From the NCBI RefSeq assembly GCF_022846255.1, contig NZ_AP025682.1: 64,000 nt of DNA; one strand, given 5' to 3'. Origin of the DNA: Escherichia coli (lineage in GTDB: Bacteria; Pseudomonadota; Gammaproteobacteria; Enterobacterales; Enterobacteriaceae). Of this stretch, positions 3,768-64,000 are shown piece by piece (position 1 is the first letter of the stretch; every line of letters begins with the position of its first letter). Under the pieces are notes generated by a model, which did not search any database, was not told the origin of the DNA, and worked only from the letters and a program-made list of their open reading frames with translations. A program made the translations under genes and the position numbers.

Positions 3768-3790
3768 TAATATATTTCCATTACTAGTAA

Positions 3791-4582: not shown

Positions 4583-5572
<990 letters not shown>

Positions 5573-29102: not shown

Positions 29103-29702
29103 TTATCTTTTTTGGTAGTCACACTCCACTAACACCAGCAATAACTGGCTTAGTGCCGCGTAAAAACCAAAGCTGTCATACTGTCGACAACGCGCAGCAA
29201 ACTCTGGTAACCATTCCCGCAGCGCCGTCAGTGTTTTTTGCCGCAAACCGTCGATTCTTCGCGCAGGAACGGTCCCCTCTCCCAGCGAAAAATGCAGATG
29301 ACTCAACAACTCGAGATAGATCGCCAGATGATCTGCCGGTTCGTTGAAATTGCCGCTGGTCTCCATCCCTGCCTCAACTAACAAGCGTTTAATCTCTTGC
29401 TCGTCCTGTTTGTAGGCCGATGCATACGGCAGCGCCGCTTGTTTGTCGGTCATCAGAAACAGGCCGCAAAAGTCAGCGGCCAGTTCCAGACGGGCATCGT
29501 CACGTACTGTCAGAGTGGCAATACTGTTTTCCAGCCCATTCACCGCCGCAGTGAGCGGAGGTTCGCTTTTCAGCAACGAAAACCATTCAGCCATCTGCGC
29601 ACTGGCGATTTGCGTCAGTTGTTCATCGTCCAGTTCACGGGAGAACAACTGCGCCAGCCAGGCGTAAACACAGGCAATCTGTTGTGCTGTCAGCGTGGTC
29701 AT
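29103..29702 (-). CDS. torD: TMAO reductase maturation chaperone TorD
   Basis: Start at the internal [16 protein letters not shown], 199 aa, overlapping the end of torA. Confidence 0.92.
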
Positions 29703-32245
29703 GATTTCACCTGCGACGCGGGAACATATTCGCACTGCGCCACCATCTCCACGGGGCCGTTAAACGCCGTCACCTGCTCCACTGTTCCGTTGTACTTCTC
29801 AATTTCCACCAGCGTAGTGTGCGCACTGGTCGCCTGCGCCAGCTGCGAAGTACCGATGTCGATGGTCAACACGTTGGGGTTACCGTATTTGCACAGCGCC
29901 CCTGGCTCGCCGCCTTTGTCCGGATCGTACCATGCCCCTTCGTGAATTCGCGCCACGCCGGGTGCATAACGGTCAGAAACCACTGCTCCAGCCAACACCT
30001 GACCACGAACGTTAAAGACGCGTACCACATCACCGTGACGAATACCGCGCGCGCTGGCATCCTGCGGGCTAATAAATACTGGCTCTTTACCCGCTACGGT
30101 ATATTGCTGACGCAGAGTTTCCGACTCACATAACTGCGAGTGAAGTCGGAAATCCGGATGCACAGATTGCAGATGCAACGGATACTTCTGCGAGCCAGGC
30201 CCACCGTGGGAGCGTTCGATTTTCTCAAACCACATCGGATGCCCCTGACAATCGTCGTAGTTCATGTCGGCGATGGTTTTCGAGTAGATCTCAATCAGGC
30301 CACTCGGCGTGCCCAGCGGTTCGAGATCCGGATCTTCGCGGAATGCCTGGTGGCGAACAAACATCTGCGGATGGTCAAACTCGACGTACTCTTTGTTATT
30401 CCAGAAGTCATCAAACGCTGGCAGATGAACGCCGCGTCCTTTGCCCTGTTGTACACCTTCCTGCCAGATGCGTTTCAGCCAGCCCATTTCGTCCAGCCCT
30501 TCGGTAAAGGCTTCTTCGCGATTAAAGCGACGGCACAGCTCGCGGAAAATATCAAAGTCGTTGCGCGCCTCGAACTGCGGCGGCACGACCTGTTTCATGG
30601 CGATGATGCCACGATTGGAGTGGTTGCCGTACTGGTCGAGATCGTTACGCTCAAACTGCGTGGTCGCAGGCAGCACGATATCGGCAAAGCGGCAGGTTGA
30701 GGTCCACTGGTTATCTATGGCGATAACCGTTTCCAGCTTGCGCCAGCCTTCAATAATGCGGTTGATCTGCTGATGGCGATGGAACGGGTTAGTTCCGGCA
30801 AAAATACACATTTTCAGCGGCGGCAGTTTTACCGATTTACCGTTCCAGTTGATTACTTTCCCCGGTTCGAGGATCGCATCGATAAAACGGGCAATCGGAA
30901 TGGTGCTGCTGTAGCCTTTGTAGTCACTGTTGTCGTGAACAGGCGGAATCGACGTAGAGCCGGAGAAACCACTCAAAATAACGCCTTTACGCCCCGGCGT
31001 GCCTGCGCCGTTATAGTGCCAGCCAAAACCAAAACCACCACCTGGCAGGCCAATTTGCCCCAGCATCGCCGCCAGAACGACAATCATCCACGCCCACTGT
31101 TCACCGTGCTGCATACGCTGTACGCACCAGCCAGCAATAATCTGCGTTCTGTTCGCCGCCATCTGCCGTGCCAGCCCACGAATGGTTTCGGCATCAATGC
31201 CGGTCAGTTTTTCTGCCCATGCGGCATCTTTCGGCTGACCGTCTTTCTCACCCAGCAGATACGGCAGGAACTGCTCAAAACCTACACAGTAGTTAGCGAG
31301 GAAGTTTTTGTCGTACAGGTTTTCACTGTACAGCGTATGCGCCAGAGCCAGTTGCAGCGGCACGTCAGTTTGCGGGTTAACCGCAATGTGCTTCACATGC
31401 TCGCCCCCCAGATACTCATGGGTGGATGTGACAACCGGATCGATGCTGATGACCTCAATTTCACCGGCGGCGACTTTCGCTTTTAGCTGCTCGTAATATT
31501 CATAAACATCGTGATCCGGGCACCACCAGTTCGCTTGCTGGTTTTTCAGCAAATCGGAGCCCCACAGCACAATGGTTTTGCTGTTCTGCAATACCAGCGG
31601 CCAGGAGGTTTGCTGTTCATACACTTCCATCGAACCGACTACGCGCGGCAGGATCACCTGCGCAGCCCCGGTAGAGTAATCTCCGCCTGTACCAACGCTA
31701 TTACCATGCAAGGCAATCGCTTTCGCCAGCATCCCCGAAGCGTTATGGAACATCCCCGTCGATTGCCAACCACTGGCGGTCAGCAAGGCACTCGGCCCGT
31801 GAGTTTTCTGTACGCGTTCCAGTTCTTCATAGAACATGTCGAGGGCTTCATCCCAGCTCACGCGCACAAAACGGTTATCACCGCGCTGGGAGGTGTCGCT
31901 CAGATGGCGCTTACGTAGCCAGTCCACGCGTACCATCGGATAACGAATACGCGCCGCGTTGTGTACATGATCCGGCAATCCGGCGATCATTTTCGACGGA
32001 TATTTATCCAGTTCGAACGGTTTTGCTGCCACGAAGCGACCCTCCTTCACCGTCGCGCGGATAGCCCCCCAGTGCGACCCGGTAAGAATGCCCTCTTTCG
32101 AGATGACAGCCTCAGTCGCCGCTTGCGCCGCAGTCGCACGGCGCGGCGTTAACAATGACGGCCCCAGCATCCCGGCGACGGTTAAGCCGCCGAGTTGTGC
32201 CAGAAAACGCCGACGTGATGCCTGAAAGAGATCGTTATTGTTCAT
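29699..32245 (-). CDS. torA: Trimethylamine-N-oxide reductase TorA (molybdoenzyme, Tat signal)
   Basis: 848 aa with a twin-arginine signal ([11 protein letters not shown]). Confidence 0.95.
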
Positions 32246-33417
32246 TATTTTTCTTCCTTCTTATCGCCGTGAGCTTTACCTGCGGTGTCAGACGCATTCA
32301 TTTGCAGATATTTCAACAAGGTGCGTTCTTCACGTTTATCGAGGCTGGTAAAGCCAATCATGCCGTTGAGCGTGCCGATCCAACCGTTAGCGTCAAAGTG
32401 GGATATTTCCGGTGCGCCGTGGCACTGGTTACAGGTGCCGTTGTACAGCGAATCCGCATAAGCCCAGATCGGTTTGATATCGTTCACCATGTCGCCTTTC
32501 TTCATCCACGCAGTGGCCTGCAACTTGCTCCACTCGGTATTGGTGTCGGCAACGGTGGTTTTCTCCAGTGTTTTCACCTGCTGCTGCACATCACCACGAA
32601 TCGAGGCAACAAAGATGCGTTTACCTGGGAATTGGGTGAGTACACGCTGACGTCCTGCACTTTCCGTCCAGCCAGTGATTTCAATTTGCAGCCAGTCGCC
32701 GTCACGTTTAAGGACTTTCACTTCCGAAGCAGGCAGCAGAGAACCAGACGCTTCTTTATCGCCTTTCGCCGCATAAATCGGCTTAATATCAATGGAGTAC
32801 AGCGTGTCACCACTATCATTAGCACTGGCGCGCAGCTCATCGAACTGCTTACGGAAGCCACTACTCATATCCGGTAACTGGTGGGCAATACCTTTATGAC
32901 AGTCGATGCAGGATTGATTATCTTTCGCTGCCACCTTCATCTGACGCGCCGCTTCAGGATGCTGCTTCGCATGATCCATCGCATCGTAGTTATGGCAGGA
33001 GCGGCAGGTTGCCGAGTTGTTTTCTTTCATTCGCGCCCATTCACGCTCGGCAAGTTCCGCGCGTTTGGCTTCAAATTTCTCAGGTGTATCAATGGAGTGG
33101 GCAATAAAGGTCTGGTAAATGTCGTTGCTCGCTTCCAGTTTGCGCTTCACCATGCCTGGAATATCCGGCGGGATATGACAGTCATGGCATTCAGCTCGCA
33201 CGCCGGAGGCGTTCTGGAAATGCACCGACTGTTTATATTCTTCATACACCGGTTGCATACTGTGGCAACTGACACAAAATTCGGTTGTGCTGGTGACTTT
33301 GATCCCAACGTGTGGCAATACAATCAGCGCAATGCCAATCACAATCCCAGTAGCGACCAGCGCCAGTACCGACCAACGAGCACTGGGTCGGCGTAGCGCG
33401 TTCCAGAGTTTCCGCAT
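32245..33417 (-). CDS. torC: Pentahaem c-type cytochrome TorC
   Basis: Start at the internal MRKLWNALRRP, 390 aa, with multiple CxxCH motifs. Confidence 0.93.
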   Translation of the reverse strand: MRKLWNALRRPSARWSVLALVATGIVIGIALIVLPHVGIKVTSTTEFCVSCHSMQPVYEEYKQSVHFQNASGVRAECHDCHIPPDIPGMVKRKLEASNDIYQTFIAHSIDTPEKFEAKRAELAEREWARMKENNSATCRSCHNYDAMDHAKQHPEAARQMKVAAKDNQSCIDCHKGIAHQLPDMSSGFRKQFDELRASANDSGDTLYSIDIKPIYAAKGDKEASGSLLPASEVKVLKRDGDWLQIEITGWTESAGRQRVLTQFPGKRIFVASIRGDVQQQVKTLEKTTVADTNTEWSKLQATAWMKKGDMVNDIKPIWAYADSLYNGTCNQCHGAPEISHFDANGWIGTLNGMIGFTSLDKREERTLLKYLQMNASDTAGKAHGDKKEEK

Positions 33418-33546: not shown

Positions 33547-34239
33547 ATGCCACATCACATTGTTATTGTTGAAGATGAGCCGGTTACCCAGGCGCGATTA
33601 CAATCTTACTTCACTCAGGAGGGGTATACCGTTTCCGTTACGGCGAGCGGTGCCGGGCTGCGGGAAATTATGCAGAATCAGCCGGTGGATTTGATTCTGC
33701 TGGATATCAATTTGCCCGATGAAAATGGCCTGATGTTAACCCGCGCCCTGCGAGAACGCTCAACGGTGGGGATTATTCTGGTTACCGGACGCAGCGATCG
33801 GATTGACCGTATTGTTGGGCTGGAAATGGGCGCAGACGATTACGTCACCAAACCGCTGGAGCTGCGCGAACTGGTGGTACGAGTGAAAAATTTGCTCTGG
33901 CGAATCGACCTCGCGCGACAGGCGCAACCGCACACTCAGGACAACTGCTATCGCTTTGCCGGTTATTGCCTGAATGTGTCGCGCCATACGCTGGAGCGGG
34001 ATGGAGAGCCGATTAAACTGACCCGCGCAGAGTATGAAATGCTGGTGGCGTTTGTGACCAATCCCGGCGAAATTCTCAGCCGTGAACGTCTGCTGCGTAT
34101 GCTCTCTGCGCGTCGGGTGGAAAACCCTGACCTGCGCACCGTCGATGTGTTAATTCGTCGTTTACGCCATAAACTCAGTGCAGATTTACTGGTGACACAA
34201 CATGGCGAAGGTTATTTCTTAGCCGCTGATGTGTGCTGA
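33547..34239 (+). CDS. torR: Response regulator TorR (OmpR family)
   Basis: 230 aa with a receiver domain and a winged-helix domain. Confidence 0.95.
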   Translation: MPHHIVIVEDEPVTQARLQSYFTQEGYTVSVTASGAGLREIMQNQPVDLILLDINLPDENGLMLTRALRERSTVGIILVTGRSDRIDRIVGLEMGADDYVTKPLELRELVVRVKNLLWRIDLARQAQPHTQDNCYRFAGYCLNVSRHTLERDGEPIKLTRAEYEMLVAFVTNPGEILSRERLLRMLSARRVENPDLRTVDVLIRRLRHKLSADLLVTQHGEGYFLAADVC

Positions 34240-35240
34240 TAAAAATAGACCGGACGAAATCCCCCTGGTGACAGCGAGCGACGGATATGTTCGCGGTCGG
34301 CATTTTTCGGCGTCATGACTAAAATCGGTGGGCTGACATTATCAGACACCGATTGCCCCTGTAATTGCCTGATAGCCTGCTCAACCGCCAGTTCCCCCTG
34401 CCAGACCATTTGATCGCTGGCTGCCATAATCACTCTTCCCCGCTTCAACCCGCGATACACCTGATGTGAAAGATAAAACGACACCACGGTAAGCGGCGTT
34501 TTCAGGTTGCGCCCTTCCCCCATTGCCGCCTCTGCCGCAATGGCCGTTCCGGCAACGACGTCGATTTCTGGATGGCGTTCCAGCATCTCCTGCAACAGGT
34601 TACGCTGGATTTCAATATCGTTATCACCGAGCGCAATATCAACAATACGTACCGGGCTTCCGGCAATGGCTGCGCGAAAACCCTCTACCATCTCCTTACT
34701 GCCCCCGGCGTTATCGGGGCCGGGCATCAACAGCACGTTCAGTGGTTTACCGTGCGCCCATTGCACCAGATATCGCCCTGGTTGATAGCCCATCTGAAAC
34801 CAGGGCACACCAACGCGGCTTTTCACCTGGGGAGCATCAATAGCATTCACCAGTTCGATCACCGGCAGATTTGCTACCTGCTTTTGCAGATCGGGAAATG
34901 ACGTCGTGCTACTACCGAGCAAAATGGCCTCTGCGCCCCACTGTTTACATTGGTCGATTTGTGCTTGCTGGGTAGCCAACTGGCTGTAGCCGCCTGCCTC
35001 CAGCACTTTTAAATCCACACCGTAGCGGCGAGCAGCCTCCTGCATACCATAGTTCAACGATAACCAGTATGAATCTTTCAGGCTGGGATAAAGCGCGCAC
35101 AGTTTCCATGCGCGTTTGGCTTTAAGCGGCGTAGAGGCTTGCACCGTGTAATGCTGCGCATCATGCCAGCGCAACAGGTTATCAGCCGAAAATGCCGATA
35201 ACATGAAAAGGGAAAGAAGTAAAAATAGCAGTACGCGCAT
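34212..35240 (-). CDS. torT: Periplasmic TMAO-binding protein TorT
   Basis: 342-aa ORF with a signal peptide. Confidence 0.93.
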   Translation of the reverse strand: MRVLLFLLLSLFMLSAFSADNLLRWHDAQHYTVQASTPLKAKRAWKLCALYPSLKDSYWLSLNYGMQEAARRYGVDLKVLEAGGYSQLATQQAQIDQCKQWGAEAILLGSSTTSFPDLQKQVANLPVIELVNAIDAPQVKSRVGVPWFQMGYQPGRYLVQWAHGKPLNVLLMPGPDNAGGSKEMVEGFRAAIAGSPVRIVDIALGDNDIEIQRNLLQEMLERHPEIDVVAGTAIAAEAAMGEGRNLKTPLTVVSFYLSHQVYRGLKRGRVIMAASDQMVWQGELAVEQAIRQLQGQSVSDNVSPPILVMTPKNADREHIRRSLSPGGFRPVYFYQHTSAAKK

Positions 35241-35766
35241 GATAGCCTCATCAATAATAAGGCTTTATGCTAGATGCATTCTGCTTTGCGACTCAACCTT
35301 TTTCACCTAAAGGATGACAAAATCACATAAATAATTTAAAAATCATAGCATTAGATTACTTAATGATTAAATAATAGACTGCAAAACGCGACAAAACACA
35401 ACATATCCAGTCACTATGAATCAACTACTTAGATGGTATTAGTGACCTGTAGCAGAGCATTAGCGCAAGGTGATTTTTGTCTTCTTGCGCTAATTTTTTG
35501 TCATCAAACCTGTCGCACTCCAGAGAAGCGCAACGCCTCGCAATCCAGTGCAAAGCTTTGCGTGCCCCCACTACGACCTGCATAACCAGTAAGAAGATAG
35601 CAGTGATGTCAAACGACGCAGCTGACTTCTTTTCTTTCACGACTTCCCCACACCCAGCATGCATACCTTTCTGCCATAACTGTAGTGAATGTCTGCTATG
35701 AGCGAGGAGTGATCATTAGCCTCTCAGCCGGATGCCTTAGAGTACGCCAGAAATAAAAGGATTGCG

Positions 35767-36960
35767 CTACTGCGCCTTCCTGTTTTGACGGGATGTGGCA
35801 TATGTCATCGCTACCGCTCCCAGAAGTAACAAACCACTTAAACCAAAAGCACTTCTCCATCCCAGACTGTCGAATACCAGACCTCCAGCTGTTGAACCAA
35901 GTGCAATAAATAACTGAATCACCGCAACCATGAGGCCTCCCCCCGTCTCTGCATCTTCGGGTAACGCGCGTGCTATCCATGTCCACCACCCCGTTGGCGC
36001 AGCTGTCGCAAGTAGCCCCCACAGGCTGAGTAGAACGGCAACAGCCCAGATATGGTGTCCGACCAGCAGTAGCGCACCGGTAATCGCTGCCATAAGCAAC
36101 GGGATCATGATTAAGGTCTTATAAAATGTGGTGTTCAGGAATGTTGAGACGATCATTGTGCCGACAAAACCTGCTACGCCTATTGCGAGCAAAATCAGAG
36201 AAAGATCAGAAGGTCCCACTCTGGTGACGCTCTCCAGAAAGGGGCGCACGTAGGTAAATAAAGCAAACTGTCCCATAAAGAAGAGTCCGCAGGCCAGCAG
36301 TCCCGTTGGTACGATGGCAACGCTGAACAGGCGAAGCACAGATCTCTGTGGCTTTTGTGTTTTATCACTTTCCATCGGAGGCAGACTGACCCATTGCCAG
36401 ATGAACGCAGCTATCGCAAGGGGGACCAGACATAAAAAGGCCCCACGCCAACCGATGGTTGTCCCCAGATAGCTACCAAGCGGCGCTGCTACAACGGTGG
36501 CCAGCGCGTTGCCGCCGTTAAAAATTGCCAGTGCGCGGGAAACCTGGTGCTGCGGCACGAGCCGAATGGCGGTTGCAGCCGACATTGACCAGAACCCTCC
36601 GATGACAACACCAATCAGAGCCCTCCCCAGCATATAAATCGGATAGTCAGGTGCTATAGTGATAATTATTCCCGATATGGCCATTAAGACCGTCAGTCCT
36701 AGCAAAAGATATTTTCGATCCAGGTCTCCGACAATACGGGAGATAGTCAGACTGGTAAGCACCGCCAGCGCACCAGAGACAGCAATTCCTTGCCCTGCCA
36801 GCCCTTCGGTAACGTGCAAATCATGGGCAATGAGCGTAAGCAGGCTGACTGGCATAAACTCAGAAGCGATCAGCACAAACACGCAAAGCGTCATGGCGAA
36901 TACGCCGCTCCAGTATGCATGCGTTTTTCCGTATGATTGTTTGAGACTTACAGTGGACAT
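35767..36960 (-). CDS. MFS transporter (12-TM, DHA1-like), strain-specific accessory gene
   Basis: 397-aa polytopic ORF with MFS signature-like GRALIGVVIGG; it lies where torS would be in K-12. Confidence 0.75.
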   Translation of the reverse strand: MSTVSLKQSYGKTHAYWSGVFAMTLCVFVLIASEFMPVSLLTLIAHDLHVTEGLAGQGIAVSGALAVLTSLTISRIVGDLDRKYLLLGLTVLMAISGIIITIAPDYPIYMLGRALIGVVIGGFWSMSAATAIRLVPQHQVSRALAIFNGGNALATVVAAPLGSYLGTTIGWRGAFLCLVPLAIAAFIWQWVSLPPMESDKTQKPQRSVLRLFSVAIVPTGLLACGLFFMGQFALFTYVRPFLESVTRVGPSDLSLILLAIGVAGFVGTMIVSTFLNTTFYKTLIMIPLLMAAITGALLLVGHHIWAVAVLLSLWGLLATAAPTGWWTWIARALPEDAETGGGLMVAVIQLFIALGSTAGGLVFDSLGWRSAFGLSGLLLLGAVAMTYATSRQNRKAQ

Positions 36961-37137
36961 TATTAGCCCCCCTTAATATCGAACCAGCCAGATTCAGGCG
37001 CAGTCGGGTCAGAAGTTATTCAGGGAATAACGACATAATAGTTGGGTGAGAATAGAGGGCGATGCGGCATATTCTGCATCACACCAGACAGTTAAAAGCC
37101 ACCCGTTTACGACAGGTGGCCTGGTAAACCTTTCGGG

Positions 37138-38289
37138 TTATCTTAAGTTTGCCTTGAAAAATTGCTCAAATTTGGCAAATGGGATCTTACCCGCAACGTT
37201 GTCGTACAGATCAACATGGTTTGCCCCGGGGACAATCACTAACTCTTTCTCTTTGCTGCCGATTGCCTTAAAGGCATCTTCAGCAAAATAGCGTGAATGG
37301 GCTTTTTCACCGGTCACGATGAGTGTAGGGATAGTAACTTCATTAGCATAACTCAGCAGCGGCATATTCATAAATGACAGCGGCATGGTTGCATTCCAAG
37401 CACTGGTTGAGTTGACCGAACGCGCATGGAAACCACGCGGCATGCGGTAATAATCAAAGAACTCTTTCAATACCGGATTTGGATTCGCTGGCAGAGTTTC
37501 CGGCAAAATACGATCGGAAGCGGTGACGTTGCCCTTCTCATCAACGTAAATATCATGCCCGCCTGGCGCGAAAGCGCCATTTTCAGCATCCTTCCAGCGC
37601 TGCATGTTCAGATACTGCAATACGGCACGACGATCGGCAGTGGTGTAGCGGTCTTTGCCATCGCCCACGCCATGCCCCATTGCACGGCTCATGTCATACA
37701 TCACGCTGCTCGCCACCGCCTTGACACGTGTGTCCATCGCGGCGTCGTTTAAGGCCATGCCACCCCATCCGCAGATGCCGAGCAACCCGATACGGTTGCG
37801 ATCCACCTCTTTTTGCAGGCCTAAGAAATCAACCGCCGCGCTGAAATCCTCGGTGTTGATATCCGGAGATGCGACGTTTCGCGGGTAGCCGCCGCTTTCA
37901 CCCGTGTATGAAGGGTCAAAAGCCAGAGTGACAAACCCCCGTTCAGCCAGCGTCTGCGCATACAGGCCACTGGATTGCTCTTTCACCGCCCCGAAGGGGC
38001 CACTAACAGCAATAGCTGCCAGCTTGCGATCGCCACGATCCTTCGGTATATAGAGATCCCCGACTAAGGTGATCCCGTACCGGTTCGGAAAGGTCACCTT
38101 ACGGTGATCAACTTTCGTGCTCTCAGCAAACGTTTTATCCCATTTCTCGACCTGCGAAACGGGCGCGTTCGGATTGGTTGTATCAGCGTAACTCATATTT
38201 GTGACTCCATTTAATGATACGCATAACAGCATGGCGGGTATCGCAGCTGTCAATTTTTGGGTGAAAGCAGTCATCAAAATTCCCCTCAT
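37138..38289 (-). CDS. Secreted alpha/beta hydrolase, dienelactone-hydrolase-like, with a Cys nucleophile
   Basis: 383 aa with an N-terminal signal peptide and a nucleophile elbow GICGWGG (GxCxG), co-directional with the MFS gene. Confidence 0.6.
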   Translation of the reverse strand: MRGILMTAFTQKLTAAIPAMLLCVSLNGVTNMSYADTTNPNAPVSQVEKWDKTFAESTKVDHRKVTFPNRYGITLVGDLYIPKDRGDRKLAAIAVSGPFGAVKEQSSGLYAQTLAERGFVTLAFDPSYTGESGGYPRNVASPDINTEDFSAAVDFLGLQKEVDRNRIGLLGICGWGGMALNDAAMDTRVKAVASSVMYDMSRAMGHGVGDGKDRYTTADRRAVLQYLNMQRWKDAENGAFAPGGHDIYVDEKGNVTASDRILPETLPANPNPVLKEFFDYYRMPRGFHARSVNSTSAWNATMPLSFMNMPLLSYANEVTIPTLIVTGEKAHSRYFAEDAFKAIGSKEKELVIVPGANHVDLYDNVAGKIPFAKFEQFFKANLR

Positions 38290-38444
38290 AAAATGTGCCA
38301 GATACTGGTTTCAGACGGATAACACTGCTGTGCTTTGTTGCAACGTGCACATTATAGTTAGCATTAATAGTGCTAATTAGAGGGTAAAAAATGCTAAGAT
38401 TAATAACATATTGTTCTTAATCGTGATGCAGCAGCAGAGGAAGG

Positions 38445-39332
38445 ATGATGGCGAAACGGGAAAACTATAACGATCTCTATCTGTTTATGAAGGTCGTGCG
38501 AGAAGGGAGTTTTACCGCCGCCGCGCAGAGGCTTGGCCTGGCGCAGTCAGGAATTAGCCGTGCAGTGCGCGAGCTGGAAGAGCGACTGGGCGTGCAGCTT
38601 CTAGTACGCACCACGCGCAAGTTATCGCTCACCCATGCCGGCGAGTTATTCTATCGAAACGTCGAATCTGGATTTGACGCCTTAGATATGGGGCTTGCCA
38701 CGCTGGCCCATTATCGCCATACACCATCGGGTACGGTCCGAATTAATGCGAGCCAGCATGCCATTGATAAAGTGCTTCTGCCGAAGCTGGCGGTGTTTAA
38801 ACAACGATACCCGGATATTCGGCTGGAGCTCATCAGCGAAAGCCGGTTTGTCGATATTATTACTGAGCGCTTCGATGCCGGTATACGTCTGGGCTCGGAA
38901 GTGGATAGCGGTATGGTTGCGGTGCGCATTTCGCCCGATATGGAGATGGCCGTTGTCGGCACACCCGAGCACTTTCGTCGCTACGGATTTCCGCAAACCC
39001 CCACCGATTTAGTGGGTCATCCCTGCATCGCTTACCAGTTCGGCGACGGCAGCCTGTATGCCTGGGAACTCAATCAGGACGGTAAAAAGATCACCCATCA
39101 GCCTCAGGGACAATGGGCCTTTGCTGACAGTTATATGGAAGCCAAAGCCGCGAGGCTAGGTCTGGGACTGGCTTATGTTCCGGAGGAATTGGTGTCTGAT
39201 GATATAGAACAGGGGGCGCTGATCAGAGTTTTGCAATGCTACAGCCAACGCCTGGCAGGTTCATATATCTATTATCCGCACAGAAATGTGTCACCCGCTC
39301 TACGAGCGGTTATCGATACATTGAGAATTTAA
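38445..39332 (+). CDS. LysR-type transcriptional regulator, divergent from the hydrolase-MFS pair
   Basis: 295 aa with an N-terminal LysR HTH (FTAAAQRLGLAQSGISRAVRELEERLGVQLL). Confidence 0.85.
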   Translation: MMAKRENYNDLYLFMKVVREGSFTAAAQRLGLAQSGISRAVRELEERLGVQLLVRTTRKLSLTHAGELFYRNVESGFDALDMGLATLAHYRHTPSGTVRINASQHAIDKVLLPKLAVFKQRYPDIRLELISESRFVDIITERFDAGIRLGSEVDSGMVAVRISPDMEMAVVGTPEHFRRYGFPQTPTDLVGHPCIAYQFGDGSLYAWELNQDGKKITHQPQGQWAFADSYMEAKAARLGLGLAYVPEELVSDDIEQGALIRVLQCYSQRLAGSYIYYPHRNVSPALRAVIDTLRI

Positions 39333-40099
39333 GGGATGAAGATGAGATGATTCGCAGGCCTGGGTAATAGTTGGAAAACAACGTCCGTTCCTGGCACAGA
39401 GCAGACCATCGGACTAAACTGAAGGTCCTCTCTGTGCGAGAAACGGAAGTTAGCAATTGTGATACAGACGTGGGGCATTACTCGCTTTACAGTGTGTTAA
39501 TCAATTGGAAACAGGTCAGAATTTATTGGGTGGAATGACACCTTTAAACTTCTTGCGCATCGCAAGGAATATCTCCACCAGACGGTAAGACAGTAGATTG
39601 CGCCACAAGTCCTCAGAATGCCCTTTGCTGGGTTAACCACACGTCGTAATCATCCTTCCAGTGCAGCGGATCAAGATCCGTAATGCTCATAGTCACGCGA
39701 TTTCAAATACAAGCCCAGTGGTGTTATCCGTGAGCTGGACAGTGCTTCCGGCAACATGACTGAGACAGACAAAAAATCAGTTAGTACAGCATTGACTCAG
39801 GTTGAGCAGGAGTTAAAACAAACTGGGCTGGAGCAGTAGAAGCCTGCAGTGAATTCCCTGAATCAGGCGATTAAGTTGGCTTAAGAGTCCGTGTATGCCA
39901 TGTGCCGCGAGATGTCGTGCTATACGTGAAAGTCAGCGATATATATCGTTTTGAAGATGATTTAGGTTACGGGAGTGTCTCTGGGTGATGTATTACTTCA
40001 TCGACATCGGCTACGCACGGGTTGCCGCGATGCAGCGGATGGAAGCTGTCTGGGAAAAGAAAGCTCCGCTTGCTAATATTAGTACATCCGATGAAAAAT

Positions 40100-42797
40100 C
40101 GTGTGTGAAAGTTGCAGATTCGTAATATACTAATGAAGAATGGAGATGTATTTTATATAATAAAAACATCTAAGTAGAGCTTTTTATTTTAAATCCTTCA
40201 TTATTACTGGAGATTTTATGGGTTTTTATAATGACGCACTGAGTAAAATATATAGTGAAGATGATGATTTCCTAATTATAGGATTAACAGGGAGGACGGG
40301 GTCAGGCTGTTCAACAGTTTCTAATATACTGTCATCAGAATCAAGTGAGATAAAGCATTCTCTATTTAACGGTGATTACCCTAAGTCGAATGAAGAAAGA
40401 AAAGAGCGGGTTCTATTTAAATATTTTTCCGTGTCATGGGTTCCATTTATAAAGATACAAGCAAGTTCCATACTGACATTGTGTTTATCAAAGGACTTTG
40501 ATGGTAAGCTGAATAAATTTATTCGGGAAGTGACGGAGTTAGGTAATGACCAAAGAATCCTAGAGTCAACAGTTAATGATCTTGAATCTATACTAAAAGA
40601 AATTAAAGCTAAAGATGAAAGCTCTGATCATGATATAGATGATAAGATAAAATTCATAAATGAATATCTAATAAAAGCGAATACACAAATTAAATCCATA
40701 TTTAAGAACAAGGCTGACTATATAAAACTATATCAAGCTATAGGTAATAATTATAGATCTAGTGGGATGTACCATGACAGTTCATTTAGTGATGATTTCC
40801 ATGGTTTTTTTCTTCCTAAAAAAATAAATGATATAATTCAAAGATTAAGAACCTTAGCAAAAGAAAAGAACACAAAAACTGGAGAAAAGAAACCTATTTA
40901 TATAGTTATTGATGCTATAAGAAATCCGTTCGAAGCAACATACTTCCAAGATAGATACTCATCATTTTATTTAATGGCTGTTTCTACAGAAGAGCATTAC
41001 AGGCATCAAAGGCTTAGAGAACAAGGTTTAACTGATGCTGAGATAAAAGATATTGATGCAAAAGAATACCGTAAATCATCTTTGGATGAGAAGTCATCAT
41101 ATATATATCAGAATATACAGTCTTGTTTAGAAATATCAGACATCTATGTTGAGAATCCGGAAGAGGAAAATGTTGTTTGTCGGTACTCAGGATTGGCTAA
41201 TCAATTAATTAAATTCACTTCATTAATGAAGCGTCCCGGTATAATAACTCCATCAAATGTTGAACGTTGCATGCAGATAGCATATACAGCTAAGTTGAAC
41301 TCTGGTTGTATATCCAGGCAGGTAGGCGCTGCAGTATCTGATAGTTCATTTTCAATTAAGTCTATTGGTTGGAATGATGTACCAAGTGGTCAAGTTCCTT
41401 GCTCTTTAAGGGATAGGTTTGATTTGTCTGAGGGGATTGATGATATTGCTTACTCTGAATTCGAAAAGAACGAAAATAGTTTCATTCGAAAAATAGATAG
41501 CACTAAGATTATTTTTTTAGATGTTAAAAATAAAGGAATGAGAGCTCCATTTTGTTTTAAAACAGAATGGAATAATATCCTTGATGATAAATACAAAGAA
41601 GATCTACGGGTCGAGCATAAGTTAAATGATGATGAGTTTGCTATTATTGACAAAATAAAGTCTAACGCTAATCAAGTTTTTACAAGATCACTTCATGCTG
41701 AAGAGAATGCTTTCTTACAAATATCTAAGTATGGTGGCGTTGGTATACAGAATGGTTTTTTGTTCACAACAGCAAGCCCTTGTGAATTATGTTCTAAAAA
41801 AGCGTATCAATTAGGGATCAAACAAATATATTACATAGATCCATACCCTGGTATAGCAATGAGGAATATTTTAAACGCAGGGAGCAATAAACCATTGCTT
41901 AAGCTTTTCAATGGTGCAATAGGTAAGGCATTCCATAATTTTTACACGCCAAGAATGGCTTATAAAGATGAGCTTTCAGCAAGATCTAGGGGGTGAAAAT
42001 ATTGATACAGGTAAAGGCAACGAACCAGAAATGCTCGAGACTATTCTGGCTAAGTCTGCCGGGCGATAAGCACGAGTGCATATGCTGTTCCAAAAGTCTT
42101 CTATTCAATAAATTACGAAGTGCTAACTAACTGACCATGTACAATAAGAACAAATCGCCTTGAATTGCTCTTGATTGAATGGTGAAGAATTATGAGGGTG
42201 ATAGTCCTTACCACCCTCAATTAAAATTAAAGGTATTTACGTGAGAAATTTTTCTTAACCACACTACTAATAAAACTATTTAGTCCATGCCCATCCTGGG
42301 CTAGCGCTTTCATCTTAGAGACCGTTGAAGCACCCAGTTTTGTAGAATCGTAACGTATTTCCATCCATCTTTAAACTGTACTGTGATAACATCGGGAGTA
42401 ATCTCATAAAACACTATTCCCGAATTACCGCCTTAATTAGCATAAGTTGGCATTTTTAATTCTTATTAAATTATTGCAGCAAGTCGCTGCACTCTAGTCA
42501 TATGACCCCATGCTAAACCTAATTGTTGAGCTAAGTCATAATTTCGATTATTTGATGAACGTAAGTTATTTGACAGGCAGAATTAACCATACACAGTAAT
42601 ATCCGTTTCTGGCACATAGCAGTCCTATAGATAGTGGCATACAGTCATAGATGGTCGATTGGAGGAGGTGCAAATTCTCCCATACAAAAAATACGTAAAA
42701 TCAATAACAGCTGGAAATTATTTAATAATCAAATTATCGGAAGTTCACCAGCCAGCCGCAGTATTCTGCCACGACAAGTTGCTGCGGCTTTTTATGT
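40100..42797. mobile_element. AT-rich accessory insertion (moron / b-region-like) between the core accessory genes and the prophage tail-fibre end
   Basis: Composition is visibly more AT-rich than both flanks. It holds a single long ORF with AT-biased K/N/I/D-rich codons and no other ORF of 60 aa or more, and it is bounded on the right by a terminator and the prophage gene at 42798. Confidence 0.6.
40218..41996 (+). CDS. P-loop nucleotide kinase-like domain fused to dCMP/cytidine deaminase domain (AvcD/DCD-family-like candidate anti-phage deaminase)
   Basis: 592 aa. The N-terminus carries a Walker A-like GLTGRTGSGCST (residues 22-33) and a CoaE/nucleotide-kinase-like hhhhD motif, IYIVIDAIRNPFE (around 230). 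The C-terminus carries a CDA-fold zinc-binding signature, RQVGAAV ... HAEENAF (H493-A-E495) ... PCELC (C522, C525). An RBS, GGAG, lies 7 nt upstream of the ATG. Confidence 0.75.
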   Translation: MGFYNDALSKIYSEDDDFLIIGLTGRTGSGCSTVSNILSSESSEIKHSLFNGDYPKSNEERKERVLFKYFSVSWVPFIKIQASSILTLCLSKDFDGKLNKFIREVTELGNDQRILESTVNDLESILKEIKAKDESSDHDIDDKIKFINEYLIKANTQIKSIFKNKADYIKLYQAIGNNYRSSGMYHDSSFSDDFHGFFLPKKINDIIQRLRTLAKEKNTKTGEKKPIYIVIDAIRNPFEATYFQDRYSSFYLMAVSTEEHYRHQRLREQGLTDAEIKDIDAKEYRKSSLDEKSSYIYQNIQSCLEISDIYVENPEEENVVCRYSGLANQLIKFTSLMKRPGIITPSNVERCMQIAYTAKLNSGCISRQVGAAVSDSSFSIKSIGWNDVPSGQVPCSLRDRFDLSEGIDDIAYSEFEKNENSFIRKIDSTKIIFLDVKNKGMRAPFCFKTEWNNILDDKYKEDLRVEHKLNDDEFAIIDKIKSNANQVFTRSLHAEENAFLQISKYGGVGIQNGFLFTTASPCELCSKKAYQLGIKQIYYIDPYPGIAMRNILNAGSNKPLLKLFNGAIGKAFHNFYTPRMAYKDELSARSRG

Positions 42798-42799
42798 TT
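42755..42799 (+). terminator. Rho-independent terminator at the right edge of the AT-rich segment
   Basis: GCCGCAG ... CTGCGGC stem followed by TTTTTATGTTT on the + strand; no matching T-run on the minus strand. Confidence 0.55.
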
Positions 42800-43109
42800 A
42801 ACGGATAAACAGCCAGACCAGCAGACACGCCACCGCGGGCACCGCAAAATCCATCAGACTTGCCACATCCCATGCACGAGGATCAAAACCGCCCCACCAC
42901 GGCATGTTAATCCGCTTGCCATGCCCGAACATTTCAATCCAGCGATATTCTGCCTGGGTGTGTTCACGCGCAATGAAGAACGTACAACCGGCTATCGCCC
43001 CGTAAGCCCAGTTTCCGGTAAAAAGACCAATCAGTAGCTGCGCAGCCACAGCACAAAGTGCATGAAGGAAAGGTGTTATATCCATTACTCCTCCTTTATC
43101 AGATATCAC
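42798..43109 (-). CDS. Small inner-membrane protein (prophage moron-like, last gene of the late operon)
   Basis: 103 aa with two hydrophobic helices, overlapping the upstream gene by 11 nt. Confidence 0.5.
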   Translation of the reverse strand: MISDKGGVMDITPFLHALCAVAAQLLIGLFTGNWAYGAIAGCTFFIAREHTQAEYRWIEMFGHGKRINMPWWGGFDPRAWDVASLMDFAVPAVACLLVWLFIR

Positions 43110-43800
43110 TTCGGGAAGTTGATAACAACTTTAATTCTGACTCAAGTTCATCAACTCTTTCAGTCAGTTTCTGGATATGGTGAATCAGTGGAACAACCAG
43201 ACGTTCGTACATTACACCTTCGACAACAAGGCCATTGCTGGAAATAGCTTCAGGAGCATCATCTTCGTTAGCTGGTCGCCAGTGTACAAACTGAGGAGCA
43301 ATTTCTCCCACTTCCTCGGCAATCAATCCGTAGAATCCCCAGTCACTCCTGTCATTTTCGCATTGCGACCTGTACCACACAGGGCGCATCCTGAAAATGA
43401 GATCGGCGTGCTCTGAATCTATTGTCTCTACTGAATGTTTATAGCGAATAGACGATGTTGACCGCAGTACAGACGAAATTGCAGGGTCAGGATTAAGATA
43501 AAGATTTGCCGCCGCTGTAGTCGTGCCCAATTCCCATAAATAAAACGCTTCACGGCCAGTCAGCGGGTAAAAATCTCCACCATAACGACCGCTTTCCAGA
43601 TCGTTCACTTCCAGTTTGTTTTTCAGCTTATTATCAACTTCAGTTTTTGTGTATCTGGTGCTGATATCCTGCTTTGCACTGGTCATATCAGTCTGAAGCG
43701 TTGATACTTTTCCGTTAATTGAGGAAATATCTTCCTTAGTTTTACTGACATCTCCCTTTAGCGTGGTGATATCTCCTGGAATTACTGTCGATGTAGCCAT
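43099..43800 (-). CDS. Tail-fibre-associated protein with a C-terminal peptidase-S74 intramolecular-chaperone domain (Tfa position)
   Basis: 233 aa with an N-terminal coiled coil (repeated ...KxDISS/T...), then an S74 Ser-Lys motif SSIRYK and GLIAEEV (compare SDxRxK / GFIAQEV in T5 pb1 and the K1F endosialidase C-terminal domains). Confidence 0.65.
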   Translation of the reverse strand: MATSTVIPGDITTLKGDVSKTKEDISSINGKVSTLQTDMTSAKQDISTRYTKTEVDNKLKNKLEVNDLESGRYGGDFYPLTGREAFYLWELGTTTAAANLYLNPDPAISSVLRSTSSIRYKHSVETIDSEHADLIFRMRPVWYRSQCENDRSDWGFYGLIAEEVGEIAPQFVHWRPANEDDAPEAISSNGLVVEGVMYERLVVPLIHHIQKLTERVDELESELKLLSTSRSDI

Positions 43801-43809
43801 TTGTCTCCC

Positions 43810-44091
43810 TCACATCCAGCCACGAAGTTGATGCTCAACAACAACCGCATATTTATCGAATATTGACGATTTTTTTGCATCATTAATGATGCGCACGTTT
43901 ACAAAATATCCGTCTTCCTTAACACATACCGGTTCGCCATCTTCAGTCAGTTCTCCGGTTTCTTTGTACACGTTACCTATCACGTCAATAAGAATATTAT
44001 CCTGCATCGACTCGTCATCATAATAGCCAGTGCTCTCCATAAAGGCCGAAAAGTCGGCCCTGTCTGCAAATTTGAGTGTTAAATCTTTCAT
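43810..44091 (-). CDS. Hypothetical acidic small protein between stf and the S74 protein
   Basis: 93-aa ORF, start codon overlaps the stf stop. Confidence 0.4.
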   Translation of the reverse strand: MKDLTLKFADRADFSAFMESTGYYDDESMQDNILIDVIGNVYKETGELTEDGEPVCVKEDGYFVNVRIINDAKKSSIFDKYAVVVEHQLRGWM

Positions 44092-46472
44092 TAGATTGAC
44101 TCCCCCACCTGAGCATCAGTCAATGCCTTGTGCCATATTCTGAAATTCCTGACATGACCAAATAAATGACGTAACCCGGCAGTAGTCTGGCCTCCAATAC
44201 GGATAATTGCGGTGTTCTGAATACAGGACCATGTGGTTTTTGTTTCGCTGGATATACGCCCGTTACTTACTGAGCACGTAGACTGATCTGACTTTACACG
44301 CATCCCCATAACCATTTTTTCAAGCGATGCGTTTTCGTTTACCCGTCTGTTAGCTCCTCCAATATCGCAATAAGGAAATCCGTCGTAATCTGTTGAACGA
44401 CCGAAGCCAAGAATAATAGCCGCTCCGGTTTGATGACCGCCGGTGTCAAAAACACGCGGAGCTGCATTTGGCGTTTTATACCAGTTCTTATGTACCTCAC
44501 AAAGAACCGTAAAAGGAAGATTATAAAGATTATTCTTAATGGGAACTGTAACTATATCGCTTGCGCGGGTCGCCGCCGTCGTTCCTGATATAATAAAAGA
44601 TGATACACAAGGCCCATTTTCTACTTGTGGGGTGGCCAGATAAATATAGTCACCAGATACGGTTGCCCCGCCCTGCTTAGGAGAATACTGTATCTGAGAA
44701 CCTATTTTTAACTCCCCATCAATTGCCTGAATTGTTGCCTCTGCAAAAATCCATCCGGTAGCTTCGTCCTTTCTGACTCTCGCAGTAATCCTTGAGGCAG
44801 CACCGCCTGTCATATTAATTTCAAGCGTTTGTGTATCAATATACGCATCACCAAGAAAAGTTGTTGCGCTACCGTCATATTTATCAAACCGGATACGCAA
44901 CCTTACCTGCAGTTCTGTTTTAAAACGACATGAGGTTGTCACGTGTTTATTATCGCCTGAGACATCAACTGACTTTGTTGCAGCAATTGATGCCATATTA
45001 ATGGCTGAGGTTTGCCCAATCAGAGAATCGTTGCAGACAAACTTTCCATAGGTAAAACCAAAACTATCCGTCCCTGTTTCGGGCACATCCATATTTGACG
45101 ATCGCCCCCAACTGGCAGGGTTTTCCGAATTGAGCATGTAGTTTGTTCTTTGCCCCTCAATAAGCAGGCCATCACGTTCAAACCGTGGCTCGTCAATGGC
45201 AGCCTCTGTCAGCACACCAGATTTATTAATGTAAGTTGCTTTTGATGCGCGTTTAAACTTTACAACCTTATCGCCAGGCATCGTTATTTCATCATCACCA
45301 ATAACAATCTTTTTATATGACGGCGAAAAGCCCGTAATCATATCCAGTGAATCGTTAAACGGTATCCACACATCGGGAAGCGGCTGCAATACTTGTTTAT
45401 ACGGCTCCGCAGCCTGGCTTGCATACTCTCTGGCTGCGTCTTCACTTGCTTTTGCAGCCGTCTGGCTTGCAGCGGATGCTTTCGCCGAGTTAGCCGCCGC
45501 AGTCTCGCTCGCCTTTGCGTTGGTTTCACTGGTTTTTGCAGCTTTTTGACTGTTGGCTGATGCAGTGGCAGAAGCAGCCGCCGCGCTTGCAGAGCCAGCT
45601 GCAGCACTCTCGCTTTCGGCTGCTGCATCCTGACTGCTTTTCGCCGCAGTTTCACTGGCTTTGGCATTCGTTTCGCTGGTTTTCGCTGCCGTCTGGCTGG
45701 ACTTTGCGTTGGTTTCGCTGGTTTTTGCAGCTTTTTGACTGTTGGCTGATGCAGTGGCAGAAGAAGCCGCCGCACTTGCAGAACCAGCTGCAGCACTCTC
45801 GCTTTCGGCTGCTGCATCCTGACTGCTTTTCGCCGCAGTTTCACTGGCTTTGGCATTCGTTTCGCTGGTTTTCGCTGCCGTCTGGCTGGACTTTGCGTTG
45901 GTTTCGCTCGTCTTTGCGGCTGTCTCGCTGTTTTTCGCATTGGTTTCTGATTTTTTGGCTGCTGTCGCGGAGTTTGCCGATGCAGTCTGTGAGGTCGCTG
46001 CCGCCTGTGCGCTGTTAGCTGCATTCGTTTCTGAGGTTTTCGCCGCGTTCTTCGATGATGCCGCTGCAGTTTCGGATTTCTTTGCCGCCGCTGCGCTCTG
46101 AGAGGCGGCTTCGGCGTTGCGTGCCGCTTCTTCCACCATTTCCTGAAAACGGCGCAATGCCTCCGGCATGACATCATCTTCCGTCATGGCACCGAGAAAA
46201 TCATTCAGCGTCCCCGGACTGGAACCTTCATAGACGGTAATGGTCCCAACATGTGATGGCTGAGAACCCTCAATCCACAGGATGACGCTGTACTGACCAT
46301 ACTCAACGTCCATACTGTAACGCCCGGCTTCATCAGGATTTTCAGAGGTCACCGTGTTCACCAATACCGTGGTGCTGTTACGCTTTGCCTTCAGTTGAAT
46401 AGTGCAGTTCTGTATTGGTTTTCCCGCACCATCTTTCAGCACACCTGAGATTTTTACTGCTGCCATATCCAC
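44091..46472 (-). CDS. stf: Side tail fibre Stf with collagen/Ala-Ser-rich tandem repeats and a LamG/ConA-like C-terminal domain
   Basis: 793 aa. The N-terminus matches lambda Stf (KISGVLKDGAGKPIQNCTIQLKA...GRYSMDVEYGQYSV). The centre has in-frame 65-aa repeats (KTSETNAKSSQTAAKTSETNAKASETAAKSSQDAAAESESAAAGSASAAA...). The C-terminus has LamG-like motifs (RHLFGHVRNFRIWHKALTDAQV). Confidence 0.85.
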   Translation of the reverse strand: MDMAAVKISGVLKDGAGKPIQNCTIQLKAKRNSTTVLVNTVTSENPDEAGRYSMDVEYGQYSVILWIEGSQPSHVGTITVYEGSSPGTLNDFLGAMTEDDVMPEALRRFQEMVEEAARNAEAASQSAAAAKKSETAAASSKNAAKTSETNAANSAQAAATSQTASANSATAAKKSETNAKNSETAAKTSETNAKSSQTAAKTSETNAKASETAAKSSQDAAAESESAAAGSASAAASSATASANSQKAAKTSETNAKSSQTAAKTSETNAKASETAAKSSQDAAAESESAAAGSASAAAASATASANSQKAAKTSETNAKASETAAANSAKASAASQTAAKASEDAAREYASQAAEPYKQVLQPLPDVWIPFNDSLDMITGFSPSYKKIVIGDDEITMPGDKVVKFKRASKATYINKSGVLTEAAIDEPRFERDGLLIEGQRTNYMLNSENPASWGRSSNMDVPETGTDSFGFTYGKFVCNDSLIGQTSAINMASIAATKSVDVSGDNKHVTTSCRFKTELQVRLRIRFDKYDGSATTFLGDAYIDTQTLEINMTGGAASRITARVRKDEATGWIFAEATIQAIDGELKIGSQIQYSPKQGGATVSGDYIYLATPQVENGPCVSSFIISGTTAATRASDIVTVPIKNNLYNLPFTVLCEVHKNWYKTPNAAPRVFDTGGHQTGAAIILGFGRSTDYDGFPYCDIGGANRRVNENASLEKMVMGMRVKSDQSTCSVSNGRISSETKTTWSCIQNTAIIRIGGQTTAGLRHLFGHVRNFRIWHKALTDAQVGESI
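45516..45906. repeat. 195-bp near-perfect tandem direct repeat (x2, with flanking partial copies) inside stf
   Basis: The units 45516-45710 and 45711-45905 differ at only a few positions and are in frame (65 aa). Confidence 0.8.
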
Positions 46473-46530: not shown

Positions 46531-47130
46531 TCAGAACTTATAACCGACACCCACGATGAAACCGTCAGTGCGCCAGTCGCCACTGCCGGAGCCTTCATAA
46601 GCAATATCAATGGCCACGGATTCGGTCGGGTTAAACTGCACGCCAGCTCCCCACGCCAGAGACGTGTTGCTGTGGCGATCGTCATCACTTCCGGTCAGCA
46701 CATCGTGCGTTTTCCCCTTGTTGTCAGTTACGCGGAGATAATCCCCGGAGAACGTCGAAACACGGCTGTAAGCCACACCTGCCATCGCATAAGCACTGAA
46801 CCATTCATTCACGCGTACAGATGGCCCCGCCATCATGCTGAACCAGCGGTTACGCACTGAATCTTCATGCCAGCGGGTATCGCTGTAATGCGTTTTTTGC
46901 TCATCTTTGGCATTGGCATAACTGAATGACGTCACCAGCCCCAGCGTGTCCGTAAACTCATAACGGTATTTCACGTTAATCCCGTTCAGATCATCGCTGC
47001 CTGGCATATCAGTATGGGTCTGAAGATACCCGGCGCTTAGTGTGGACTGATGCTCTGCTGCGCTTGCTGGCGTACCAGCGGCAACCAGCCAGACTACTGC
47101 GGACAGAATAACAGCACATAATTTACGCAT
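46531..47130 (-). CDS. lom: Outer-membrane protein Lom (Ail/OmpX family)
   Basis: 199-aa ORF with a signal peptide and beta-barrel character, in the lambda lom position. Confidence 0.85.
   Translation of the reverse strand: MRKLCAVILSAVVWLVAAGTPASAAEHQSTLSAGYLQTHTDMPGSDDLNGINVKYRYEFTDTLGLVTSFSYANAKDEQKTHYSDTRWHEDSVRNRWFSMMAGPSVRVNEWFSAYAMAGVAYSRVSTFSGDYLRVTDNKGKTHDVLTGSDDDRHSNTSLAWGAGVQFNPTESVAIDIAYEGSGSGDWRTDGFIVGVGYKF

Positions 47131-61741: not shown

Positions 61742-61761
<20 letters not shown>
60442..61761 (-). CDS. C: Prohead protease/minor capsid protein C (S49 family), with the Nu3 scaffold nested in frame in its 3' part
   Basis: GTG start (VTAELRNLPHIASMAF), 439 aa; the track ORF extends further upstream into B. 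Confidence 0.85.

Positions 61762-64000
<2,239 letters not shown>

Follow-up and report, generated by a model that had tools for sequence, protein, structure and literature searches.

A lambda-like prophage at the torT-torS attachment site of Escherichia coli and the paired palindromic sites around its cargo cassettes

Introduction

The attachment site attB(HK022) of Escherichia coli sits between torS and torT, and about 5% of complete E. coli genomes have a prophage there (Carey et al. 2019, eLife 8:e49081, PMC6814406). According to the same study, attL of every such prophage is found at the same position, adjoining torS. The prophage cuts torS off from its IscR site such that a phage promoter drives the gene, and both aerobic torCAD expression and bet-hedging are abolished. 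Here, we study the torT side of this locus in a stretch of 64,000 nt from E. coli (RefSeq assembly GCF_022846255.1, contig NZ_AP025682.1; one strand), in the following called the window. In it, torT is followed by three genes for a major facilitator superfamily (MFS) transporter, an alpha/beta hydrolase and a LysR-family regulator, which we refer to as the trio.

The window shares with the HK022-type prophages (Carey et al. 2019) the integration site, the core, the orientation (attR by torT; int and attL by torS in the comparators) and a P arm of 89% identity, but its late region is lambda-like rather than HK97/HK022-like and its cargo differs. The prophage and its effect on torS add little, since this phage integration site has been documented before. 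What we consider noteworthy is the architecture of the cargo, i.e., bounded cassettes: the same arrangement of two distinct 24-bp sites, named L and R, is found around hundreds of cassettes including the textbook cases P2 fun(Z) and lambda ea31-ea59.

Two variable regions of temperate phages are closest to this cargo. The lambda b region (ea47, ea31, ea59) and similar morons share with it the position between the tail-fibre genes and sib/attP, are likewise dispensable and vary among related phages; different is the content, since the window carries a LysR/hydrolase/MFS module and a dCTP-deaminase gene instead of ea genes. The second is the Z/fun slot of P2 together with the defence hotspots of P2 and P4 (Rousset 2022; Moura de Sousa 2026). 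The trio is also found in Z/fun, fun(Z) itself is flanked by L and R, and proteins from such cassettes often match defence models. In contrast to our setting, these hotspots are defined by their flanking core genes, and the trio itself is no defence system. Both papers make no mention of palindromes, hairpins, inverted repeats or motifs, and the recombination process behind the swaps is said to "still need to be elucidated" (Moura de Sousa 2026).

Attachment site and prophage

We aligned the sequence beyond the torT start codon (35240) with the torS-torT intergenic region of K-12 and with strain B7A at the two ends of its prophage. Of the 82 intergenic bp between torT and torS, K-12 homology covers 72 (99.1% identity by blastn for 35201-35312) and ends at 35312, inside a 19-bp att core of the HK022 type. 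This core, CAACCTTTTTCACCTAAAG, is the sole stretch common to the attR of the window, the attB of K-12 and the attL of B7A, and the HK022 attP core CTTTAGGTGAATAAGTTG is its opposite-strand match. In K-12, the GTG start of torS is located 11 nt beyond CAACCTTTTTCACCTAAAG. The sequence that follows in the window is of phage type: 35329-35709 is 91.9% identical to lambda 27327-27708, i.e., the stretch in which the binding sites 'int 1' and 'int 2' are annotated and which includes the sib/tI region. With the HK022 attP arm, 35298-35503 shares 89% identity. Arm-type sites of the integrase (Int), namely CAGTCACTAT and AGGTCACTAAT, are readable within 35408-35448. The resulting anatomy is as follows, where the arm-type sites and the hairpin were read from the sequence.

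35241-35312, no strand: torT-proximal 72 bp retained from the torT-torS intergenic region
35294-35312, no strand: att core of attR, HK022 attB/attP type
35313-35690, plus strand: phage P arm with Int arm-type sites, sib/tI and the end of the b region (lambda and HK022 similarity)
35408-35417: Int arm-type site P2, CAGTCACTAT
35416-35442, plus strand: spurious 8-codon open reading frame (ORF), ATG AAT CAA CTA CTT AGA TGG TAT TAG
35438-48: Int arm-type site P1
35460-35499: sib/tI terminator hairpin

We identify this anatomy as attR, the end of a lambdoid prophage that has the integration specificity of HK022. A preliminary description of the window had called the 530 bp after torT AT-rich and non-coding. 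The gap between torT and the MFS gene (35241-35766) is indeed 526 bp long with a G+C content (GC) of 0.42, but given its identity to lambda and HK022 it is a phage attachment arm. The dismissal of the 8-codon ORF as spurious holds: it overlies the Int arm-type sites, and the homologous lambda stretch is non-coding. The prophage had been placed to the right of the trio; instead, its boundary is found at 35312/35313, i.e., to the left.

Because 35313-35709 constitutes the P arm, i.e., attR, all of 35313-64000 is read as prophage. Lambda-type late genes (J, lom, stf, tape measure, portal) continue unbroken to the end of the window. The following coordinates were taken from the ORF map.

42798-64000, minus strand: lambda-like late region, running off the window (about 96% identical to annotated lambdoid prophages, gene order as in B7A)
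42798-46472, minus strand: tail-fibre assembly and fibre genes
46531-47130, minus strand: lom
47198-50677, minus strand: J
53080-55641, minus strand: tape measure
61742-63343, minus strand: portal

With regard to torS, the K-12 proteins TorS, YccM, GnsA and CspG have zero tblastn matches across the whole 64-kb window, in line with the earlier observation that torS does not adjoin torT. The torT-attR junction recurs in strain B7A (99.7% identity), which carries a 54-kb lambdoid prophage at whose attL an intact torS (2745 bp, 914 aa) is found, 95 bp from the end of int. Given these data, we propose that a lambda-like temperate phage with HK022-type specificity integrated at its normal attB within the 82-bp torT-torS intergenic region. 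The window holds the attR end, i.e., torT, the 72 bp of intergenic sequence including the 19-bp core, the P arm with sib/tI, the b-region cargo and the genes for tail fibre, tail and head. Since site-specific integration deletes nothing, torS is expected beyond the other prophage end. Judged from the comparators, it is presumably intact and would be found about 45-55 kb further, 11 nt past attL and immediately downstream of int. The expected attL reads ...TTCACCTTAAG-TGCACCGACC-GTGAATTTAACC; that is, ...AACTTATTCACCTTAAG followed by TGCACCGACC and then by the GTG of torS. Severed from its own promoter and the IscR site, torS would be transcribed from a phage promoter, and the regulation of the trimethylamine N-oxide (TMAO) reductase in this strain would probably be altered but not abolished. 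The prediction is thus an altered oxygen control of torCAD, in which aerobic bet-hedging is lost, and not a loss of TMAO sensing.

Cargo trio

The three genes behind attR, together with a candidate regulator box inferred from the sequence, are listed below.

35767-36960, minus strand: MFS transporter, 397 aa (Pfam MFS_1, E 9e-39; about 12 hydrophobic segments; RefSeq homologues annotated as MFS transporter)
37138-38274, minus strand: alpha/beta hydrolase, predicted to be exported, with the Cys elbow GICGWG (378 aa with the RefSeq start, 383 aa for the ORF to 38289)
38358-38376, no strand: candidate LysR box TTAGCA-N7-TGCTAA (TTAGCAttaatagTGCTAA) of the T-N11-A type in the promoter region shared by the divergent hydrolase and LysR genes
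38445-39332, plus strand: LysR-family regulator, 295 aa, divergent from the hydrolase gene (Pfam HTH_1, E 6e-24; LysR_substrate, E 3e-36)

These assignments agree with the preliminary ones, which were a 12-TM MFS transporter, a secreted alpha/beta hydrolase with a GxCxG elbow and a divergent LysR regulator. The hydrolase has an N-terminal signal-like segment, and its elbow G-I-C-G-W-G is located at residues 171-176 with Cys173. It matches Pseudomonas aeruginosa PA2218 (PDB 2HDW) over the whole protein with E 6e-123 and a conserved GICGWGG elbow, and E. coli YcjY (PDB 5XB6) with E 2e-42. Among the Pfam models, PETase scores 33.7 bits (cut-off 28) and DLH is borderline with 21.7 bits (cut-off 21). 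We place the protein in the PA2218/YcjY family of dienelactone-hydrolase-like Cys alpha/beta hydrolases. As both PDB entries carry the label hypothetical or uncharacterised, they offer no substrate to transfer. None of the three trio proteins matches a defence family in PADLOC. Most likely, the trio is a LysR-induced module, in which an exported Cys enzyme of predicted esterase/lactonase type would act together with a transporter that handles its substrate or its product. The former view of a self-contained LysR-regulated module is reasonable. The hydrolase and MFS genes may form separate transcription units. Between them, a G+C-rich terminator-like hairpin followed by a T run (minus strand) is found at 37085-37125.

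The trio block spans 3.7 kb (35691-39406, GC 0.515). Seen from attR, it lies on the phage side, where lambda has its b region. At an identity of at least 95%, it is found in 102 of 5426 complete genomes (copies 97-99% identical), none of which shows the context of the window; that is, with respect to these genomes the window is the only case of this metabolic/transport cassette in a lambdoid b region. Elsewhere, the trio is located in a P2-like prophage of strain CFIAFB20120266 between the tail-sheath and tail-fibre-assembly genes, i.e., in the G-FI (Z/fun) slot; in a CP4-like island, where GTPase and Ag43 genes are its neighbours; and directly adjoining the integrase of a prophage at yjjG. 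In all four unrelated mobile contexts, the block is cut at the same L and R sites. B7A and strain SF-468 hold other cargo in the b-region slot of the window. From these comparisons, we take the position of the trio inside the prophage and its mobility as given, and read it as prophage cargo, namely as one of two cassettes in the phage b region.

On the chromosome, a paralogous set of MFS, alpha/beta hydrolase and LysR genes is present beside paoABCD/ykgR in 828 genomes including O157:H7 (e.g., NZ_CP017251.1 4318685-4322160, locus L130). Its hydrolase and LysR genes are about 78% identical to those of the trio at the DNA level, and it has an L-like site after its LysR gene.

Taken together, it is very probable that a lambda-like prophage of HK022 specificity separates torT from torS, that torS is displaced and not lost, and that the trio is a b-region cargo cassette. 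This reading has to be weighed against two others. The preliminary description had left open whether torS was displaced past the prophage or lost, the latter leaving the TMAO system without its sensor. A deletion of torS, perhaps with its neighbours, would agree with the absence of torS, yccM, gnsA and cspG from the window as well as with the deletion of the nearby yccE in this strain, and rearrangements in the region have been noted for some strains (Carey et al. 2019). However, the break falls exactly at the att core next to a complete P arm, which is the signature of conservative site-specific integration without any deletion; B7A has an intact torS at attL behind the same junction, and attL adjoins torS for every prophage at this site (Carey et al. 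2019). We thus consider a loss very unlikely, and of the two options once considered it is the displacement that gains support. Still less credible, in our view barely worth considering, is that the trio forms an independent chromosomal island or ancestral block between torT and the prophage. Its chromosome-like GC of 0.515, its metabolic rather than phage-like genes and the chromosomal location of the 78% paralogue next to paoABCD in 828 genomes would fit such an origin. Yet the trio is located on the phage side of attR, after sib/tI and before the tail-fibre genes, the same slot holds other cargo in B7A and SF-468, and elsewhere the trio is found inside a P2-like prophage and beside the integrase of another phage. 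It is therefore wrong that an accessory block replaced torS, as was first suggested: the trio is part of the prophage and lies between its attR and its tail-fibre genes. Prophage cargo and not a deletion is the very outcome that the preliminary description itself had named as contrary to its proposal.

Some observations weigh against the prophage reading or narrow it. The end with attL, int and torS is located beyond the window such that the intactness of torS rests on the comparators, and the rearrangements mentioned above apply here as well. The exact combination of prophage and trio is found in 0 complete genomes (0 records cover at least 80% of the torR-to-dCTPase query). Furthermore, the prophage could be defective or truncated past 64000. 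In favour of the prophage reading, the arrangement torT-MFS-hydrolase-LysR-dCTPase was found exactly, by an exact-protein look-up, in two independent sequencing runs, in short-read contigs of at most 27 kb that end inside the prophage.

Cassette boundaries

The sites at which the trio is cut are 24-bp imperfect palindromes. We define the L site as GTCYGCT-N-TGAGCGA-RR-AGCGGAC and the R site as GTCYGCT-N-TGTGCCAG-R-AGCGGAC. Each consists of 8-bp inverted arms, GTCCGCTN and NAGCGGAC, around an 8-bp asymmetric spacer, which is TGAGCGAR in L and TGTGCCAG in R. The window contains four copies, while none is expected by chance.

35691-35714, plus strand: L-type site of the trio, GTCTGCTA TGAGCGAG GAGTGATC (outer arm and spacer as in lambda and B7A, inner part as in every trio copy)
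39383-39406, minus strand: R-type site of the trio, top strand GTCCGTTC CTGGCACA GAGCAGAC (inner arm as in other trio copies, outer arm as in the SF-468 prophage)
39407-39424, no strand: 18-bp inter-cassette linker that separates the trio R site from the second L site
39425-39448, plus strand: L-type site of the second cassette (motif match)
40218-41996, plus strand: dCTP-deaminase-type anti-phage defence gene, 592 aa, GC 0.33 (PADLOC dCTPase, E 5e-127)
42601-42624, minus strand: R-type site closing the second cassette (same site in SF-468, locus L006, 11220-11243)

The dCTP-deaminase gene thus forms an L/R-bounded cassette of its own (39425-42624), which is shared with a lambdoid prophage of SF-468 from window position 39381 on. 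Its protein matches Pfam dCMP_cyt_deam_1 above the cut-off (E 2.5e-12), while for the N-terminal P-loop/kinase-like part of this family the AAA_18 match stays below its own cut-off (24.6 vs. 29.4). Between the two cassettes, the R site, the linker and the L site jointly form a single long hairpin (DNA fold -20.3 kcal/mol, z = -4.9).

Both junctions of the trio fall within the sites. On the left, the window equals B7A through GTCTGCTATGAGCGA, after which the two diverge, and all trio copies are identical from GGAGTGATC on. On the right, ...GTCCG(C/T)TC CTGGCACA is common to all trio copies; the window then continues with GAGCAGAC-CATCGGACT exactly as SF-468, while the other copies differ. The right-hand site is thus a hybrid that joins a trio arm to an SF-468-type arm, and the trio replaced another cassette by an exchange inside both sites. 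In this reading, the trio was swapped into the phage at the conserved palindromic L and R sites.

Distribution of the sites

The same pair of sites brackets P2 fun(Z) (NC_001895, 15335/17455) and lambda ea31-ea59 (NC_001416, R site 24327, L site 27345). L/R pairs are also found around two cassettes each in B7A (L003) and SF-468 (L006) as well as around cassettes of the lambdoid ren/nin region. The P2 tin/old (TO) region is without the L/R motif. To quantify the arrangement, we used 221 viral contigs that were retrieved with either half-motif. These viral loci provide 112 convergent L...R pairs and 37 back-to-back junctions, but 0 convergent homotypic pairs. The enclosed cassettes are 0.1-4.7 kb long and mostly of low GC, and five of the ten largest cassette proteins match defence models. 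One near-empty cassette was observed at about 1946-2046 of locus L208, where L and R are 53 bp apart (101 bp in total), i.e., sites can persist without cargo.

Beyond phages, the R 23-mer has more than 120 matches in species-representative bacterial genomes, compared to about one expected by chance according to our estimate. Within Enterobacterales (Pantoea, Erwinia, Klebsiella, Citrobacter and others), 51 heterotypic pairs face 1 homotypic pair, and tandem arrays are found in addition. Such arrays with 12-18-bp linkers are located on the chromosomes of Pantoea, Erwinia, Mixta and other Enterobacterales, e.g., at 548-5900 of locus L264 from [Erwinia] mediterraneensis. Their cargo comprises regulators and transporters of ArsR, LysR, LysE and TauE type and is thus of the same kind as that of the trio; no integrase is evident in the 8-kb loci of these arrays. 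An identical R-type 23-mer also occurs in Alphaproteobacteria and Betaproteobacteria (L237, L284, L330, L343 and others: Pseudolabrys, Xanthobacteraceae, Hyphomicrobiales, Nitrosomonadaceae). There, the copies are always on the same strand, within clusters of hairpins that resemble repetitive extragenic palindromic (REP) elements and share the stem ATGTCCGCT..AGCGGACAT with other loops.

Across more than 120 distinct sites with unrelated flanks, both 8-bp arms and both 8-bp spacers are high in information. Arm positions 4 and 21 vary independently, i.e., the arms show no covariation. Given these sequence statistics, we accept the L/R grammar as real, and the strict grammar together with the information in arms and spacers looks like selection for protein recognition.

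Comparison with known elements

We compared the sites with described elements of similar shape. A reading as RNA structure was rejected because the arms show no covariation; we thus treat L and R as DNA sites. Scanning 35200-43200 with Rfam yields no family, and only sub-threshold miRNA-like matches from the inter-cassette hairpin are reported. Furthermore, the sites do not fit the consensus of Ogr/Delta TGT-N12-ACA late-promoter boxes, of sigma-54 or CRP sites, of Int core sites, of dif/cer, of attC or of the enterobacterial repetitive intergenic consensus (ERIC) and REP. In P2, the activator site of pF is annotated at 17555-83 and the motif is located at 17441-64.

Integron attC cassettes and Acinetobacter pdif modules are similar in that they comprise promoter-independent cassettes of 0.1-6 kb with short imperfect palindromes, tandem arrays and an inter-cassette hairpin; for pdif modules, the bounding sites are also inverted as for L/R. 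In contrast, L/R cassettes come without an IntI gene, GTTRRRY boxes or an XerC/D consensus, and they use two heterotypic sites plus linker instead of one shared site. An integron gene cassette was thus dismissed, given that the L/R consensus GTCCGCT-N-TGAGCGA/TGTGCCAG-N-AGCGGAC lacks the R''/R' GTTRRRY boxes. The ORF map reveals no integrase gene between 35313 and 64000. A Xer-dependent module, i.e., pdif or an integrative mobile element exploiting Xer (IMEX), was also set aside: by eye there is no similarity to dif (GGTGCGCATAA-TGTATA-TTATGTTAAAT), and the spacer comprises 8 instead of 6 bp.

REP elements and their composites (bacterial interspersed mosaic elements, BIME; REP doublets, REPIN) resemble the sites with regard to alternating L/R units with 12-18-bp linkers and the REP-like clusters in Alphaproteobacteria; the L/R sequence differs from that of the E. 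coli REP. Another parallel is provided by promoter early stem-loop (PeSL) cassettes of T4-type phages, where short conserved stem-loops are reported to flank variable genes and modular shuffling is proposed (Arbiol et al. 2010, PMC2839356). Different from L/R, these cassettes occur in virulent T4-type phages, include a promoter and have another sequence. L/R motif strings and descriptions were not found in the searchable literature using exact strings and keywords; an earlier description may exist.

Movement of the cassettes

How the cassettes are exchanged can be explained in two ways. The trio and the dCTP-deaminase gene might be two units of an undescribed Enterobacterales cassette-exchange system, in which L and R serve as heterospecific recombinase targets similar to recombinase-mediated cassette exchange. 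We regard this as possible but doubtful. A dedicated recombinase is favoured by the strict grammar, the high information of arms and spacers and the approximately 15 bp that are shared at cross-backbone junctions. Alternatively, L and R may be short shared patches, such as insulating hairpins or REP-like elements, at which general or phage-encoded short-homology (Red/RecET) or illegitimate recombination now and then crosses over without any dedicated recombinase, an explanation towards which we lean slightly. In line with it, the lambda, P2, island and chromosomal contexts share no recombinase gene. Also, the stem is very widespread and occurs in alphaproteobacterial REP-like clusters without the L/R grammar, the arms lack covariation, and the literature leaves illegitimate recombination open. 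What speaks against it is that transfers between unrelated backbones share just about 15 bp at each end. RecA-dependent exchange is usually quoted to need about 23-27 bp, which is more than these 15 bp. Equally hard to reconcile with short homology are the strictness of the grammar (112 vs. 0 in viral loci, 51 vs. 1 in genomes) and the information-rich arms and spacers in more than 120 distinct sites with unrelated flanks. On balance, we rate short-homology or illegitimate recombination as somewhat more likely than a dedicated recombinase.

If true, the cassette-exchange reading would explain how defence and metabolic cargo moves among P2 Z/fun, the lambda b region, ren/nin, integrase-adjacent slots, islands and the arrays of Pantoea and Erwinia. 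If the sites make cargo exchangeable, they would provide a concrete, mutable sequence to test how defence hotspots swap their contents, as well as a simple computational means to delimit cargo cassettes.

Flanking tor genes

The chromosomal part of the window shows the gene order putA, rut, wrbA, agp, cbpAM, torDAC, torR, torT, in an orientation opposite to the K-12 map. As previously stated, torCAD, torR and torT are intact: tblastn with K-12 and B7A proteins results in full-length matches (torDAC block 29103-33417, 94.5-99.5% identity).

29106-29702, minus strand: torD, intact and full length
29702-32245, minus strand: torA, intact, 848/848 aa, 99.1% to K-12 TorA
32248-33417, minus strand: torC, intact, 390/390 aa, 99.5% to K-12 TorC
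33547-34239, plus strand: torR, intact, 230/230 aa, 99.6% to K-12 TorR
34212-35240, minus strand: torT, intact, 342/342 aa, 98.8% to K-12 TorT (Pfam Peripla_BP_1, E 5e-87)

In B7A, which likewise has a prophage at torS-torT, the annotation of torA (14600-17146 of L003) is that of a pseudogene, with an internal stop, while torA of the window is intact. Between agp and cbpA (about 27190-27723), yccE is absent from the window; its remnant comprises the C-terminal 42 codons at 27473-27598 with 64% identity.

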